Of a DNA stretch of 64,000 nucleotides, positions 26,952-50,771 are shown in pieces. The notes beneath the pieces are model-generated. The model saw nothing but the letters and a program-made list of their open reading frames with translations, did no database searches and was not told the DNA's origin. Position 1 is the first letter of the stretch; every line of letters starts with the position of its first letter. Location of the stretch: assembly GCA_964016885.1 (NCBI GenBank), contig OZ024758.1, positions 7,812,001 through 7,876,000 of the forward strand, given 5' to 3'. A program made the position numbers and the translations under genes. The DNA is from Eledone cirrhosa. Taxonomy: Eukaryota.

Positions 26952-27288
26952 GGAGGCACATGGCTTAGTGGTTAGAGCATTGGCCTTGCAATCGAAAGGT
27001 TGTGAGTTCAATTCTTAGACCGGGTGATGTGTTGTTTCCTTGAGCAAGACACTTTATTTCACATTGCTCCAGTTTACTCAGCTGTAGAAATGAGATGATA
27101 AGGACTGGGTTCCCTATCATTCCACTGCAAAGTGGTCGTGTAGGCGCCACGGCAAAAAAGCACCCAGCACTCACTGTAAATGAGGTTGGTGTTAGGAAGG
27201 GCATCCAGCTGTAGAAATCAAGCCAGAATCAGTTCCCATCCCACCCTTGCAAGCAGGGAAAAAGCAGACGTAAAATGATGATGATGAT
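26952..27288 (+). mobile_element. Full-length CORE-type SINE, family B, with RTE-derived tail (tail type 2)
   Basis: A box tggcttagtgg, B box gagttcaattc, CORE-like domain, single copy of the 48-bp unit, RTE 3' tail with (ATG)n. Confidence 0.85.
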
Positions 27289-27413
27289 ATATATATGTAT
27301 GTATATATATATATATATATGTACACAAACATATATGTAACGTTCAAAGAGATAGAAGGCTAAAATGGACTGTAAGAAGAGGTAACGAAAAGTAAAAGTT
27401 ACCTGGTAATCTT

Positions 27414-28394
27414 TGGGCGTTTTTTTGTCGTGACACCTACATGACTACTTTACAGTGTGGACTGGGCACTTTTTGTCGTGACACCTACACGACTACTTTA
27501 CAGTGTGGACTGGGCGCTTTTTGTCGTGACACCTACACGACTACTTTACAGTGTGGACTGGGCGCTTTTTGTCGTGACACCTACACGACTACTTTACAGT
27601 GTGGACTGGGCGTTTTTTGTCGTGACACCTACACGACTACTTTACAGTGTGGACTGGGCGCTTTTTGTCGTGACACCTACATGACTACTTTACAGTGTGG
27701 ACTGGGCGCTTTTTGTCGTGACACCTACACGACTACTTTACAGTGTGGACTGGGCGTTTTTTGTCGTGACACCTACACGACTACTTTACAGTGTGGACTG
27801 GGCGCTTTTTGTCGTGACACCTACACGACTACTTTACAGTGTGGACTGGGCGCTTTTTGTCGTGACACCTACATGACTACTTTACAGTGTGGACTGGGCG
27901 CTTTTTGTCGTGACACCTACATGACTACTTTACAGTGTGGACTGGGCGCTTTTTGTCGTGACACCTACATGACTACTTTACAGTGTGGACTGGGCAGTTT
28001 TTGTCGTGACACCTACACGACTACTTTACAGTGTGGACTGGGTGCTTTTTGTCATGACACCTACATGACCACATGGCCACTTTACAGTGTGGACTGGGTG
28101 CTTTTTGTTGTGACACTTACATGACCACTTTATAGTGTGGACTGAGCGCTTTTTGTCATGACACCTACATGACCACTTTACAGAGTAGACTGGGTGCTTT
28201 TTGTCATGACACCTACATGACCACATGGCCACTTTACAGTGTGGACTGGGTGCTTTTTGTTGTGACACTTACATGACCACTTTATAGTGTGGACTGAGCG
28301 CTTTTTGTCATGACACCTACATGACCACTTTACAGAGTAGACTGGGCGGTTTTTGTTGTGACACCTACCTGACCACTTTACAGTGTGGACTGGG
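27414..28394. repeat. 48-bp minisatellite, about 20 units, derived from a SINE internal segment
   Basis: Unit ctttacagtgtggactgggcgctttttgtcgtgacacctacacgacta; gives the 16-aa periodic ORF 27441-28124. Confidence 0.95.
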
Positions 28395-29949
28395 GGAACT
28401 GTGAAGAGATTGAGGTGGTACTACAGTACTAAACACATTATAGAACTTTCTGTTATGATATTGAACATTGCAGAAATATTTGCTGACTACATCTCTTTTA
28501 AAGAATTATATTTACTTTGACTTCTAACAATTGGTTCATATAGCCTGCTGTGATTTAATGTTTCTAATTCTTAGACTTAGATGCTTGTTACCAAACTGCT
28601 TCTCTCTATCACCTCTATTAGATTACTACTGCTCTTTTATTGATGTAATAGCCTTATTTCACAATTTCACTGAAGGTATTGAGGACACAATGTTGCTCTT
28701 TTTCTCATAACTGGTGTTATATTAAATTATATTGGCTTGCATAAACATTCGGTTAAAATTTTCTTATCTAAAATTGCTTGTAGGAAACAATCTGTAATAT
28801 AAATCATTTCTTAGAGCAAGTTATATGATAGATGGAAAGCTCATTGCAATATAATTGGTATTCAGTTCTGTTTGTAACAAAGTTATCATACTTCTGTCTT
28901 GTCATTTTTTTTTTTTAAACAGTAAATTTGTGCTACAATATATTGTTCTTCGTGATACAGCTGGTTTTGATTTGGTGTGACTTTGAGAAAGCAGAATGTT
29001 CATAGTAGCTTTTGTCATTTCTTTTATCTCTTAGGCATTCAACAAAACAGTTTTATTTGATTCCACGAATCCCATCAGTGAATATTCTTTAAAATAAACA
29101 ACATTGTGTTTTAACTTATCTCTTCTTGATAAAACAACAACAACATCAATAACAACAAAACTAGTTATTCTGTTGGTAACATAAATATTTTTATATTGGA
29201 TTTGTTATCTAAATGAAGTGGAATTATTATTTTTGTGAAAAGCTGGAATGCAACTTACAACTTGAAAATATTCCCTATATGTTCAAAGAAAATCTCCCAG
29301 GCTTCTAATTAAGTTGATTATTTGTGTTTATCCAACCAGTGTATTTTTCTCTTGAAAACATTAATAATAATTCTAATGAGGAAGTTAACAACAATAACAG
29401 CACAACACTCATTTTGTTTTGCTCATTCTTCTAGTTATTTCAATGAGAATGATATATGAATGACTTTGATATCTTGCTTTTCACTCTGCCAAATTAATTG
29501 TTTCTTATTGATTATATTTGCAGTGATGCTTGTTATTCAGAATATAGCCATATCTGTTTGGATTCCATCTATATAATTACATTTCAATAGTTATTTATGC
29601 ATGATTTTAACAAAATTTTGACAGGAATGGATACTAATTTTATTTTCTATTATAGAATGCTCTTATAGAAATTCTGTGCTGGTAACTTTGATCAAAATAG
29701 TCTAGAAAACTAAAGCGAATTTGCTTACTCTTCTATGACTGACTGTTCCTTGAGTGAGCTTAAAAGGTTTTTGTCAGCAAATACAGTTAGTTCTGTTGTT
29801 AATGAAACTCTGAAACAATATTTTAGATTTCTAGGAAACTGAATGTAGGAAAATTGTTAGTGGCTTTTATTAATATTGTAAGTAAAGTTTGGCTGAGATA
29901 ATATATAAATTAAGGTGGACTAAATTTCCATTATAATTAATTCTGTAAT

Positions 29950-30488: not shown

Positions 30489-30559
30489 CAAAATTAGTTT
30501 ATAACAGAAGCACTCTACAGAATTCTTCTGGAGTATAATATCAAAAGTATTAATAAATG

Positions 30560-30751
30560 GAAACTATCTTTATAAAATCATATTTATTTTATTATATATA
30601 TTTCAAGGGTACCAATTCAAACAGAACTTAAAACGATAAGTTCTTGTTTTGGATATGACACTATCTGTAAAACAACTTTTATATTTTATCTGATGAGAGC
30701 GTAGTAGACAAACGAACTGGACAGATCGGTGACCACCAGGCATATGTGCAT

Positions 30752-30755
<4 letters not shown>
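30560..30755 (-). mobile_element. P5 sister copy with a micro-inverted hammerhead 5' half
   Basis: Minus strand GAAA-tatata-TA-ataaaata (30604-30585); plus strand tattttat-CTGATGA-gagcgta (30682-30703); 54-bp match to 31021-31074. Confidence 0.65.
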
Positions 30756-30782
<27 letters not shown>

Positions 30783-31020
30783 AAATGGGGAGAAGAATAC
30801 TGCAGGTTGCACATGGATAACATGTTATAAAATGAGTCCCTCATCAGTGATTTGCCAACGATCATAGATATTTCATTGCATTAAAAATCATATACCTCAC
30901 GTTGGTGCAATAATAACTAAATTAAGTTATTAGGACAATTAAAACGCGTAAAGCGAGTGAGACAAGTAAACAACAAAGAGGAAAGCTAACCGTAGATAGG
31001 AAGGGCACAAGCTACATATA

Positions 31021-31220
31021 TATAATGCACATATGCCTGGTGGTCACCGATCTGTCCAGTTTGTTTGTCTACTAGCATATCAGGAAAAAAAATTATAGAT
31101 TTTCTATATATTTTGTCTGAGGAGGACATGTTTTGCTTTATGTTAAACATAAAACTTTACATCTTTGAAATATATATAATAAAATAAATAGAGATTATAT
31201 AAAGTATATATCTTTTGTTA
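31021..31220 (+). mobile_element. P5 family copy (putative Penelope-like terminal repeat)
   Basis: Homologous to 46225-46500 and 50495-50760; starts in a TA run. Confidence 0.65.
31109..31186 (+). ncRNA. Putative type I hammerhead ribozyme (P5 family)
   Basis: tattttgt-CTGAGGA(31117-23)-ggacatgt..tttatgtt-a-aacataaa..acatcttt-GAAA(31167-70)-tatata-TA|ataaaata. 8-bp stem I, long stem II, palindromic minimal stem III, predicted cut after 31178. Confidence 0.7.
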
Positions 31221-31340
31221 TTACTATTATTATTATATATATATATATATGCTGGCCTTGTGCCAATAGTAGAAACAATTATTATATATATATATATATA
31301 TATGTACACACACACACATATACATACATATATATATATA

Positions 31341-31849: not shown

Positions 31850-32913
31850 AGATTTATCTGCATATCTGCTTCATGAATCAACCAGTATATTCTCTAATCA
31901 GCCTTGGGTTACCAATCTCTAAACTACACATTTTCTTTACAATTACATCATAGAAGTCTGATTTTAGCCATTTAAGAACAAAAAGAGAGGGAAAAATGTC
32001 CTGTGTTATCTTTCTATTTCTTAATAGTTCTACTAATTGGCAAGCAATTAAAAGTAATTAGTGTAAGTTGTCAAATGTGGAACATGTCTGACATTTATTT
32101 TGGCTATTTTAAAATATAAATCTTTATTTTAACTCAGTGAACTTATCCACTATATCACAGCCTTATAACCTCAAGATAGGGATATCATCATCATTTGTCA
32201 TCATCATCGTTTAATGTCCATTATCTCACAGTAACATGAGTTAGACGAGTTGTCCTGATGTGAGACAAGTCAAATCAGATGACTGTGTCTCACTCATACA
32301 GACCTGTTTCTGGCTTGGTTTCTACAGCTGGATACTCTTGCTAATGCCAACCACATAATGTGGACTGGGCACTTTTGACCGTGGCACCAAAACAACCACT
32401 TTACAGTGTAGACTGTGTGCTTTTTATCATGTCACCAAAACAACCACTTTACAGTGTGGACATGTAAGATATATTTATCATATAGATTAAGTAAAATCAA
32501 ATATTAAGGCTTATGAAGAAATTATGTTATCACTATTTATAAAAAGTCATTAAAATTGATTGGCAGATTGAAATACAGAGCTCTTAAAATTTAGCTTCTG
32601 AGCAAATTTCGTTTAGTGTCTCATATTAATATAACTTCATGTATAATTCAAGTTGTACATTGTGTACAAGAAAACATTGCTTTTTTTTTAATAATTCCAT
32701 GTTTTTATATAAACTAAAAAAACTTCATTAAAATTTACAGCAGACCATTGCAAAATGAGTCAATTTCAACCTTTCACTTCAGCTATTTATGTTGCATTAT
32801 CTTACCCATGTGTATCCAGTTTAGAATAGTTACATTGGATCCTTATGTGTCATAAGCAGCTACCAAAAAGGCTTGGCACCAAGAATGGACATTAATATTA
32901 CATATATATATAT

Positions 32914-33129
32914 ATAGGAACAAGTAAGACCCCGATGGCTGAGCTCAAGCCGTTTCGACGGCTAATTCTGTCAGAATTCGACGGCTAAGTCTATCAGAAT
33001 TAGCCGTCGAAACGGCTTGAGCTCAGCCGTCGGGGTCTTATTTGTTCCTATTACCCACTCTACTACCCTAAGTATTGAGTACTTTGGTGCGTTATGGTCC
33101 ACCTGGTTCCTTACCACATTTCCTTCGTT
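32914..33129 (+). mobile_element. P1 fold-back element with hammerhead 3' half
   Basis: Inverted repeat 32914-33051; GAAA(33009-12)-cggct-tgagctc-agccg-TC-ggggtc; unique tail; (TA)n flanks. Confidence 0.7.
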
Positions 33130-36910: not shown

Positions 36911-37107
36911 TACATGTTCGTTGTACTGGAACTGTGATCTCTCAATTTGGAGAAGCAGTGACTCTCTGTTCACTGAGCTACACACACTATCGAGTAATGT
37001 TACTCCAAAGAAGGAAATCCCCGCTTCAGCTGATTGTATTTATGATCGTATTGTTTTGCTCATTACCCAAGATTCATGACAATAGGTAAATGTTAGCACT
37101 TTACCTA

Positions 37108-37350
37108 TTGACGTGACACCAACACCATCATTTTACAGTGTGGGCTGGGCTCTTTTTGTTGTGACACAAACACAATCATTTTACAGTGTGGGCTGGGCTC
37201 TTTTTGTTGTGACACAAACACAATCATTTTACAGTGTGGGCTGGGCTCTTTTTGTTGTGACACAAACACAATCATTTTACAGTGTGGGCTGGGCTCTTTT
37301 TGTTGTGACACCAATACAATCATTTAACAGTGTGGACTGGGTGCCTTTTG
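37108..37350. repeat. 48-bp minisatellite, about 5 units
   Basis: Unit ttttacagtgtgggctgggctctttttgttgtgacacaaacacaatca, a variant of the 27414 unit. Confidence 0.9.
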
Positions 37351-37734
37351 TATGTATATAAAAAATTAAGTAATAATGTAGATGATGTTGGGGGTGGAGT
37401 AGGGTGTGTATGAAATAGAACTAGGCTTAGTATAACATTTTTATTTTCAATGTATATGATTATTTTCATGTGAGTGTGTGTGTACAACCTAGGGAGCAGT
37501 TGTCTGAAATGAAAAGAAGAGTAAAAAAAACTTCATTTAACATAAAACCATGTAACTGAAGTGGGATTTCAGATTGATGTATTCTTGTTGTCATTTTGTC
37601 AGATATATTTATTCCAGTGGTCATGTCATATAGTTTTTGTTTACATGGTAAACAAAATCACTGATCAATTAATCATATCAATAATTTGAAATACAGTAAA
37701 CAATGTATGGATCAAATAATGTGTTTGTGTAGTC

Positions 37735-38369
37735 CATGGGTTCCCAGTCTTTTATGAGTCATCGTACACTTTCACATGGAAAAGATTTCCACCACCCGCC
37801 TGTATACTAAATATTCAAAAGTATACCAAAAATGTTTGGTAAAAGTTTCTTACTGATTTCTTATTACCATTATTACCATTTAGCCTCCTGTTTTTTTTTT
37901 GTTTTTTTGGGGGGGGTGGGGTTATATATATATATATATATGAAAGTGGCAGAAAGAATGTTAGCGCAACTAATTAGAGAAAGGGTCAAATTAGATGAGA
38001 TGCAGTTTGGTTTTGTGCCTAGGAAAAGTACAACAGATGCCCTCTTCTCAGTGAGACAACTACAAGAGAGGTTCTTAGAGAAGAATAAGCCACTATACTT
38101 AGCTTTGGATGACCTAGAGAAGGCCTTTTATAGGGTACCCCGCAGGGAAAAGCGGATGTAAAATGATGATGATATATATATATATAAACCAATTCTTTAC
38201 ATATCACCTTTGAATATGTTTTTCGGGTAGCATATGTTGAAACAACTTTTGAATACTCAAATCCTATATCATCCACTAAAGTTTCCAATCGCTTACCATT
38301 TTCTTTTCAGTTGCTCAACAGTTAAAATCACTCACCAGTGGGCAATATCGCCCAGGTTGGGAATCTCTG
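37735..38369. mobile_element. hAT (Charlie-like) MITE with nested RTE fragment
   Basis: Degenerate TIRs catgggttccca / tgggaatctctg; candidate 8-bp TSD gtgtagtc / gtgtagag. Confidence 0.5.
37940..38172 (+). pseudogene. RTE LINE reverse-transcriptase fragment fused to the LINE 3' tail
   Basis: MKVAERML...DEMQFGFVPRKSTTDALFSVRQLQE...LYLALDDLEKAFYRVPR (RT motifs QxGF, STxDA, DLEKAF), then gcagggaaaagcggatgtaaa(atg)n. Confidence 0.9.
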
Positions 38370-45400: not shown

Positions 45401-46224
45401 CAATCTGCCATTGTTTCTGGAAATGTTCGTTTATATATCATATGGATTTTTCTCCTTTTCTTCCTATAGAAAATAGTTTAGTATTCTCGTTGAACTGCAA
45501 CATTTGATGTTAGTTTGTCAAAAGCAATGTTTTTATTTTTACTATGAAATAAAAATATTTTACATCAAAAAGAATTTATCTTCACAAGAAATCAGTTCAA
45601 TATTTCAAGGATGATGGTTCAATATTGTATTTCAAAAGAAAAGTGAGTAGTTACAGAATAAATATGCCTTATAATATATATATATTTTTTTTAAATGCAG
45701 TCATAGCTAAATGGTTAAGAAGTTAGCTTTGAAATTATGAGGTCCTGGGGTTTGATCTCACTGTGTAGCCTTTCACTGTCTTTAACATAGCTGTAGATTG
45801 ACCCCCAAGCCTTGTGATAGTAACTGGCAAAACTGAAACTATGTGGAAGCTCGGCAGATGGACTGTACCAGTAATTTAAAGGTCCTATTTTGTCAAATGG
45901 GATAAAGTCAGGTATGGAAAAGGGAAGTTGAAGGGTTTTAAATATTTTGAGCTAAATAAGATTAGGTATAAGGGAACAAAAGCTGACCACTAAAAGACAA
46001 TTGGAGTGTGTAAAGAAGGAACAGTGTTAATACAGTCATATATACACATACACAAGCAAAACTATCCATCTTTCTATCCCTCCATCTATCTATCTATCCC
46101 TCCCTCCCTCCCTCCCTATCAAGCTATCCCTCTCTCTATCTATATATATAATCAATGAAAAAATAGTTAGTTGATTTGTGGTCAACTCGTTTTTTTCTGA
46201 CCAATCTAATTACGCTATATTTTA

Positions 46225-46500
46225 AATAATTTATGAAACATTTAAACCAACTGTAATGTGTCCCTGTCCCCCCCCCAATTACGTAACACCCTTACGTTCT
46301 GAGGTTTTTCTAGTCATATGCCTGGTGGTCATCGATCTGTCCAGTTCGGTTGTCTACCAACATATGAAAAAATTATACATTTTCTATATATTTTGTCTGA
46401 GGAGAACATATTTTGCTTGATGTTTTACATAAAACTTTGCATCTTTGAAATATATATAATAAAATAAATAGAGATGATATAAAATGTATATCTTTTGTTT
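46225..46500 (+). mobile_element. P5 family copy
   Basis: Homologous to 31021-31220 and 50495-50760. Confidence 0.65.
46389..46466 (+). ncRNA. Putative type I hammerhead ribozyme (P5 family)
   Basis: tattttgt-CTGAGGA(46397-403)-weakened long stem II-GAAA(46447-50)-tatata-TA|ataaaata. Confidence 0.6.
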
Positions 46501-46670
46501 ATTACTAATATTATTATCTCTCCCCCTCCGAGGTTAACTTTGCCTTTCATCCTTACGGGGTCGATAAAATGAAGTACCAGTAATGTACTGGGTAATTGCT
46601 GGCCTTGTGCCTAAAGTAGAAACAATTATTATCTCTCCCCCTCTCTCTCTCTCTCTATATATATATATAT

Positions 46671-46883: not shown

Positions 46884-46894
46884 TATATATATAT

Positions 46895-47094
46895 ATAGGA
46901 ACGAGTAGGACCCCGACGGCTGAGCTCAAGCCGTTTCGACGGCTAATTCTGGACTGAGTCCAGAATTAGCCGTCGAAACGGCTTGAGCTCAACCGTCGGG
47001 GTCCTACTCGTTCCTATTACCCACTCTACTACTACTAGTATTGAGTACTTTGGTGCATTATGGTCCACCTGATTCCTTACCACATTTCTTCCGT

Positions 47095-49714: not shown

Positions 49715-50165
49715 AAGAATGAGAAATTAGAAAGATTGAAGGGACATGCAGAGTGGAATCGTAAAATTTTTTTTAAAGAAAAATGACGTTTCCATTCTTG
49801 GAAAGCTGTTGCTGCGGGCATTTTGTGTATGATATACTTTTTTTTTTATAAAAGTGGATGATGGAGTGCATCTATCTGAAAGGGGAAAAAAACATTTGGT
49901 AAATAGAGCTATAAGAGTGTGAGTGCGTAAACGTGTGTGTGATTATACATATATCATCATTACTGTTTTACGTCCATTTTTCCACACTAGCATGGGTTAG
50001 ACAAGTTGTCCTGCTGTGGGCAATGCCAGGTCAGGTGACCATGTCTTACTCATGCAGAATTGATTTTGGCTTGGTTTCTACAGCTGGATGCCTTTCCTAT
50101 ATATATTAGAAAGAGTTGGGACCCACTCTACTATCCCAACTATCAAGTTTAATCCTGATATATAT

Positions 50166-50358
50166 ATAGGAACAAGTATGACCCCGACGGCAGAGCTCAA
50201 GCCGTTTCGGCGGCTATTTCTGGACTGAAATAGCCGTCGAAACGGCTTGAGCTCTGCCGTCGGGGTCATACTTGTTCCTATTACCCACTCTACTACACTA
50301 AGTATTGAGTACTTTGGTGCGTTATGGTCCATCTGGTTCCTTACCACAATTCCTTTGT
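50166..50358 (+). mobile_element. P1 fold-back element with hammerhead 3' half
   Basis: 55-bp arms 50166-50220 / 50227-50281 (54/55 match), loop tggact; GAAA at 50239-42; (TA)n flanks. Confidence 0.75.
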
Positions 50359-50494
50359 TATATATATATATATTTATATATAATAATAATAGTTTTTACT
50401 TTTATCACAAGGCCAGCAATTACCCAGTGCATTACTGGTACTTTATTTTATCGACCCCGTAAGGATGAAAGGCAAAATGATAATAATAGTAATA

Positions 50495-50760
50495 AACGAA
50501 AAATATATACTTTATATCATCTATATTTATTTTATATATATTTCGAAGATGTAAAGTTTTATGTATAACATAAAGCAAGACATGTCCTCTTCAGACAAAA
50601 TACATACGAGATGTATAATTTTTTCATGATATGCTAGTAGACAAACGAACTGGACAGATGGGTGACCACCAAGCATATGACTAGAAAAAACTCAACACAT
50701 AGAGAGTTACATGACTAGGAGAAAACATTACAGTTGGTTTAAACGTTTCATCAATTATTT
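50495..50760 (-). mobile_element. P5 family copy with hammerhead core (stem III shortened)
   Basis: Minus strand tattttgt-CTGAAGA-ggacatgt...acatcttc-GAAA-tatat-ataaaata (50602-50528). Confidence 0.65.
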
Positions 50761-50771
50761 ATATATATATC

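Follow-up and report, generated by a model that had tools for sequence, protein, structure and literature searches.

Type I hammerhead ribozyme patterns lie in a dispersed repeat of Eledone cirrhosa, and this repeat probably represents a Penelope-like retroelement, or a non-autonomous derivative of one, of which the 5′-truncated 3′ end (pseudo-LTR) is left. The stretch analysed (hereafter the window) spans 64,000 nt of contig OZ024758.1 and consists of animal-type DNA rich in repeats, with a GC content of ∼33% and without any long clean open reading frame. A relaxed type I descriptor finds exactly two complete motifs in its 64 kb, at 31109–31186 and 46389–46466, precisely where a preliminary description had placed two complete cores. 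The near-complete third core given there (50528–50602, minus strand) is also present, with an intact stem I and CUGAAGA, but 3 nt are missing at stem III and the cut site and the motif is likely dead. The motifs and the element copies that carry them are listed below in window positions.

31109..31186, plus strand: complete type I hammerhead motif, subfamily A, with a 43-nt stem II; predicted cut after 31178
31098..31196, plus strand: the same motif with its extended stem I (∼17 bp), from the fold with flanks and the pair table
46389..46466, plus strand: complete type I hammerhead motif, subfamily A, laid out as 31109–31186; cut predicted after 46458; private mutations weaken its stem II
50528..50602, minus strand: near-complete motif, subfamily A; retains the G10.1-C11.1 pair but has lost 3 nt spanning stem III and the cut site
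31013..31237, plus strand: element copy 1, which reaches least far in the 5′ direction; a TA run at either end, and immediately downstream the 3′ end of a SINE
46190..46508, plus strand: element copy 2, longest 5′ extent; contigs start at ∼46190
50477..50769, minus strand: element copy 3, with a TA run at its 5′ end
30534..30763, minus strand: element copy 4 of subfamily B, facing copy 1 head-to-head
30586..30652, minus strand: 3′ half of the copy 4 hammerhead (apical hairpin, 3′ strand of stem II, GAAA, AUAUAUAU-A, 3′ strand of stem I)
30682..30703, plus strand, opposite to the rest of copy 4: 5′ half of the copy 4 hammerhead (5′ strand of stem I, CUGAUGA, 5′ strand of stem II)

In the motif at 31109–31186, stem I is formed by the strands UAUUUUGU and AUAAAAUA (8 bp, one G-U). 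CUGAGGA follows at 31117–31123, then the 43 nt of stem II (31124–31166), GAA, AUAUAUAU and A17. In hammerhead nucleotide numbering A17 corresponds to 31178, so that cleavage is predicted after this nucleotide. Stems I, II and III surround the core with the open end at stem I, which is the type I arrangement. The C3-U-G-A-N-G-A9 part of the core is present in all three subfamily A copies; G12-A-A-A15.1, the A15.1-U16.1 pair and H17 are found in two of the three and in the 3′ half of copy 4, and are broken in the 50528 motif. The latter, with its CUGAAGA core, has a G-C pair closing stem II, as does 42–47% of the contig depth; G10.1-C11.1 is G-C in one of the three A copies and G-U or A-U otherwise. 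The 8 pairs of stem I noted in the preliminary description are there but are not its full length: extended by a further 9 bp, the stem runs to ∼17 bp with one mismatch and one bulge. The duplex of the stem I arms is worth about –11 kcal/mol, a value equalled by 4–13 of 1000 shuffles. Among the three window copies, both partners have changed in two distal stem I pairs, a result that 44 of 500 shuffles also give (not significant). An extended stem I was rejected for copy 4, for which 388 of 1000 shuffles were as good.

Chance does not readily produce such a motif. In 150 local dinucleotide shuffles we found a mean of 0.013 motifs per window with a stem I of at least 6 bp and none with at least 8 bp. 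Among viral contigs, none of 113 matches to the core pattern had a stem I longer than 4 bp and we dismissed them as chance, together with 14 metagenome-contig matches, all confined to the seed and with 46–69% GC; prokaryote genomes gave no matches to the motif. Since the window copies share ancestry, these figures speak for one real motif and not for three independent ones. A covariance model built from the three subfamily A copies finds no further complete copy in the window, its next matches being TA hairpins. The Rfam search proposed in the preliminary description returned no hammerhead at the copies: there was no hammerhead match at E ≤ 1 in the window, nor at E ≤ 10 in 30520–31240, and the many miRNA matches are TA/CA repeats below threshold. 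A match to Rfam is a test against a library, not a definition of the hammerhead fold, and its hammerhead models likely miss the motif because of the long stem II.

Stem III is the palindromic 8-nt AUAUAUAU, which makes two A-U pairs and a palindromic tetraloop. It had been described as a palindromic minimal stem III of the Penelope-associated type; a type I hammerhead of the Penelope-associated type and the palindrome are both supported, but this is a small helix III and not the helix-III-less ‘min-HHR’ as given in PMC4209133. By the folding model, forming the 2-bp stem III costs ∼3.5 kcal/mol, and an 8-bp AU duplex between the stems III of two copies gains only –3.2 kcal/mol. The whole motif folds weakly (z –0.1 to –1.7) in these copies, which are decayed and AT-rich. 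Without flanks neither of the two complete copies folds as a hammerhead; with flanks, the minimum-energy fold of two of three copies (31109 and 50528) is hammerhead-like in its stems I and II. When the three copies are aligned, pairing is kept in 98 of 100 pair cells, against 36–59% when the partners are slid. The further idea that stem III, as a TA repeat, matches the preferred TA target is supported by nothing beyond coincidence in a genome of 33% GC; the (TA)n-targeting Hydra elements in the rows of File S2 of PMC8557442 used here have non-TA stem III sequences, unlike the TA palindrome of our motif. At 46449 one read locus carries five extra AT units in stem III, which would lengthen helix III so that it could form within one molecule.

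The read and contig data extend this picture to the family. They come from four runs, at most three samples and two studies, all of DNA or unlabelled, and the contig runs may represent the window's own sample. Copy 2 is aligned by 713 X1 contigs and 724 X3 contigs and by ∼1,170 RAD reads per run, as befits a dispersed multi-copy family. The summed X1 depth rises about tenfold 3′-wards, from ∼4,700 at CUGA to 45,000 at GAAA and stem III, a value that is not a copy number and to which short AT-rich matches may contribute; such a rise is as expected from 5′ truncation and from subfamilies sharing the 3′ half.

Sequence variation within the family largely spares the core. Among the best 40 of 142 variant rows, N7 (G>A, 23–24 contigs) is the sole core position. 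In the same 40, 46446 T>C restores G10.1-C11.1 (42–47% of depth, 75–79 contigs), a frequency that points to CpG decay behind the G-U of the window copies. Also among these 40, 46410 A>G, 46419 G>T and 46425 T>A mend private stem II changes of copy 2, and the variants at 46405 and 46461 (the latter A>G) keep G-U/A-U pairs. None of the 22 listed variant positions in the 99-nt motif falls on the 12 core and cut-site positions (P ∼0.04), and with the palindrome counted as well 0 of 18 positions are hit (P ∼0.007), recruitment favouring conserved stretches in both cases. A counter-example is one read locus that breaks both the 5′ C of the stem II mismatch (46407) and a stem I pair (46393).

These data bear on whether the family is a hammerhead at all. 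A hairpin-rich AT repeat, for example part of a decayed MITE or SINE, could resemble a hammerhead by accident and be copied with its family; a single chance origin would be enough, since the copies are not independent of one another, and both the silence of Rfam and the weak folding z-scores would suit it. We nevertheless hold such an accident to be highly improbable, given that the 12 core and cut-site positions, stem I, G10.1-C11.1 and the palindromic stem III all co-occur, that the core survives in subfamilies with different stems II and that, among the listed variants, core variation falls on N7.

The core, together with a basal stem II of 8 positions that includes a C·C mismatch and shows compensatory changes, seems to be common to three subfamilies. 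In subfamily A, stem II runs through 3 bp, the C·C mismatch, 4 bp and a 3 × 3 U-rich loop, continues with a single pair, a mismatch and 7 bp, and ends in a 3-nt loop. Subfamily B is represented by copy 4, whose identity to copy 1 is 96% across the initial 45 nt, drops to 55% in the middle section and is 79% in the 3′ portion. The two halves of its hammerhead make 6 of 7 basal stem II pairs around the same C·C, with two G-C pairs where subfamily A has A-U, and give 5 pairs when swapped with subfamily A halves. The 5′ half alone is a weak BLAST match (E 0.39), and it is likely an inverted piece of a subfamily B hammerhead whose stem II would measure ∼55 nt. Subfamily C is found in reads (209 and 277 in two samples, among 24 of 305 loose ends listed) that have an intact stem I and CUGAUGA followed by a different stem II and a copy-4-like tail. 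Its raw reads possibly come from one RAD locus; these changes also occur in 15–19 contigs. The numbers of reads that have T at 46440 (230 and 299) match these read counts and suggest, for subfamily C, a 30-nt stem II whose base again has 3 bp, C·C and 3–4 bp, with A-U, G-U, G-C, C·C, A-U, U-A, A-U.

The preliminary description had raised the possibility that the extended stem II is an added functional module, such as a protein-binding or SECIS-like hairpin. Stem II length differs among the subfamilies (∼30, 43 and 55 nt, two of the three having been pieced together by inference), the apical arm appears to vary in both length and sequence, and the basal helix alone is kept. The idea of a fixed added module is therefore weakened, and the SECIS version is not supported: no UGA/GA quartet occurs on the sense strand of any of the four copies, and Rfam finds no SECIS match at them. 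We also looked for an open reading frame starting inside stem II, as in the anole element, and discarded it, the ATG frame ending after 19 codons. In the reading we prefer, the basal 8 positions including C·C would be the structurally constrained part of stem II and the apical arm a tolerated, variable extension. Alternatively, the long stems and the conserved C·C could provide a tertiary contact, or a site for protein binding, through which a single hammerhead is able to cut; the extension would then be a functional module after all, if not a SECIS. All three subfamilies have the C·C in the same place, next to compensatory changes, the length of stem I is unusual, and an apical hairpin is present in subfamily A (7 bp) and subfamily B (about –11.5 kcal/mol); moreover, the anole element's hammerhead requires protein (PMC11167929), and an axolotl helix III of 2 bp and a tetraloop gave 22% monomer cleavage (PMC7229834). 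Yet the apical arm is conserved neither in length nor in sequence, the 30-nt form has no clear apical hairpin, this stem III has A-U pairs only, C·C could be accounted for by common ancestry alone, and two of the three subfamilies are pieced together, so that we find this reading rather improbable.

As to the parent element, the Penelope-like pseudo-LTR is our preferred assignment because a sense hammerhead with a palindromic helix III lies near the 3′ end of the repeat, and because of the variable 5′ ends, the head-to-head pair, the inverted half in copy 4 and the TA runs at 5′ ends. The repeat is 200–320 bp long with the cut site ∼55–60 nt from its 3′ end, and the three subfamily A copies are ∼88% alike, each with a different 5′ end. 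TA runs of at least 9 nt lie within 15 nt of three of the four 5′ ends and one of the four 3′ ends, against a background of 5% (for runs of at least 8 nt), two of these ends belonging to one cluster. Penelope-like elements typically show truncation at the 5′ end, 5′ pieces in inverted orientation and insertion at (TA)n (PMC8557442, in the parts drawn on here). In 123 window frames no ORF for a Penelope reverse transcriptase or GIY-YIG domain was found near any copy, the copies being only 200–320 bp long. The sole reverse transcriptase match among these frames is an RVT_1 fragment at 37811–38158 (E 2.8e–5), 6.6 kb away, which we take to be RTE-like and which is unrelated to the hammerhead family. 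ARAGORN finds no tRNA head on the element.

In an active ancestor, tandem transcripts would fold two hammerheads together through the self-complementary stem III, as in the strand-swap model of the hammerhead dimer. Such a double hammerhead would cut after AUA, ∼55–60 nt from the 3′ end of the element, and the element's protein might assist in this, as with Poseidon of the anole; solo genomic copies would then be decaying remnants without a partner in cis. Penelope-like hammerheads are described as cleaving poorly and as dimers (PMC4209133; review PMC6765202), and cleavage in the anole element needs the element's protein and is dispensable for insertion in vitro (PMC11167929, as far as the portion used here goes).

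The same copies might alternatively be monomers of a non-LTR retrozyme, that is, a 190–320 nt non-coding unit arranged in tandem arrays elsewhere, cut to unit RNA, circularised and re-inserted by a Penelope enzyme. The repeat has no coding sequence, its size is inside the 150–450 bp range (PMC7229834), a 5′ boundary at ∼46316 preceded by TA repeats recurs in 9 contigs, and retrozyme families can consist mostly of monomers (bioRxiv 10.64898/2026.07.22.740005). We see this origin as possible, though unlikely: none of the four window copies has a direct tandem partner, none of the 11 joints listed goes back head-to-tail from the 3′ end to the start, the loose ends behind the 3′ end of the element are heterogeneous (agreement 0.53), and 5′ ends differ between copies. 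The axolotl retrozymes HHR_Amex1/2 do share with our motif the type I layout, a helix III of 1–2 bp with a tetraloop (palindromic in HHR_Amex1) and a non-coding unit of a few hundred bases, and they cleave better as a dimer (PMC7229834, in the sections used here). In contrast to them, the window loci show no tandem arrangement, no recognisable canonical contact between loops 1 and 2, and long stems I and II.

A further comparison is with the Penelope pseudo-LTR hammerheads. According to the parts of PMC4209133 and PMC8557442 used here (including the Hydra/Chlamys list in File S2 of the latter), these too are type I with CUGANGA, GAAA and a palindromic stem III (for some, helix III is recorded as small and palindromic), and they have the pair G10.1-C11.1, which here is G-C in one of the three A copies; lying in pseudo-LTRs, they are likewise near the 3′ end, mostly solo and dispersed, with inverted neighbours 100–700 bp apart. 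The differences concern the arms. Stem II has 43 nt here, compared with a 7–8 bp helix in the published minimal motifs (PMC4209133) and short stem-loops in the Hydra rows (File S2 of PMC8557442), and stem I has ∼17 bp compared with 4–5 bp (PMC4209133). Unlike the published motifs, ours has an internal C·C mismatch, and no linked ORF was found for it in the window.

A long stem or loop II in Penelope-like elements does have precedent (PMC8557442). In File S2 of that paper the spike-moss PLE-X1 hammerheads also have a long stem II insertion (9 bp and a 34-nt loop in PLE-X1_sMoe, a 29-nt loop in PLE-X1_sTam) and are marked as departing from the canonical structure; PLE-X1, however, is a plant, endonuclease-less, rDNA-targeting element whose sequence is unrelated to our motif. 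Another parallel is Naiad, where ‘HHR_half_core’ is annotated in eight families including Naiad_Ovul and Naiad_Esco (two are cephalopod), with core halves 35–50 nt apart and (TA)n targets; standard descriptors, with a spacer of 7–17 nt, miss these half cores (PMC8557442, parts used here). The 3′ ends of Naiad_Obim, Naiad_Ovul and Naiad_Esco are different sequences without closed stems I–III by eye, whereas the motif here is complete. We accordingly rejected these three and Hydra-1_Obim as the parent, as their ends differ in the PMC8557442 supplement. Short-motif searches and the parts of that supplement covered gave no match to cephalopod Naiad or Hydra consensus 3′ ends, where FASTA line breaks can hide matches. 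No description of the motif was found in the literature searched, which included few subscription papers.

Penelope-like hammerheads are well known; the motif described here escapes both Rfam and the published 7–17 nt spacer limit, and counts of elements ‘without a hammerhead’ may for this reason be too high. A bolder reading would make it an active, undescribed architecture in which a stem I of 17 bp and an extended stem II, with the conserved C·C in tertiary or protein contact, mark a Penelope-like lineage that descriptor searches score as hammerhead-less (Naiad ‘half cores’, for example), and in which the TA palindrome could allow trans cleavage of the many 3′ halves present in the genome. 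We regard this as unlikely. Under the preferred Penelope-like pseudo-LTR assignment, the copies are most likely inert remnants for the host. Subfamilies that keep the core and the mismatched basal helix while swapping the apical arm nonetheless offer natural variants for studying stem II requirements, dimer pairing and a protein switch.

Several observations concern the surroundings of the copies. The head-to-head pair 30534–30763 / 31013–31237 has a 62-nt arm in common (97% identity), and its left copy looks chimeric, with an A-type 5′ end and a B-type hammerhead whose 5′ half is inverted. At the corresponding place (31076–31098) the A copies show a faint look-alike of this inverted 5′ half. 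The spacer between the arms (30780–31012) is unique in the window, bounded by TA runs and perhaps the end of another element; it contains a minus-strand CUGAUGA at 30841–30847 and no complete hammerhead, a type II hammerhead around this CUGAUGA having been rejected because no convincing stem II was visible by eye. All three A copies are directly followed by 3′ pieces of one SINE (31250, 46510 and, on the minus strand, 50476), likely inserted into the TTA/TA tail; the SINE tails of the window presumably resemble octopus SINEs. A second TA-associated family at 32913–33115, 46894–47081 and 50165–50345 forms a near-perfect GC-rich hairpin of ∼120 nt. Its copies are 83–88% alike, and each lies 0.1–1.7 kb from a hammerhead copy in mixed orientation. 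Finally, 48-bp tandem arrays derived from a dispersed repeat segment occupy 27277–28504 and 37008–37451, the former giving a 242-codon open frame.
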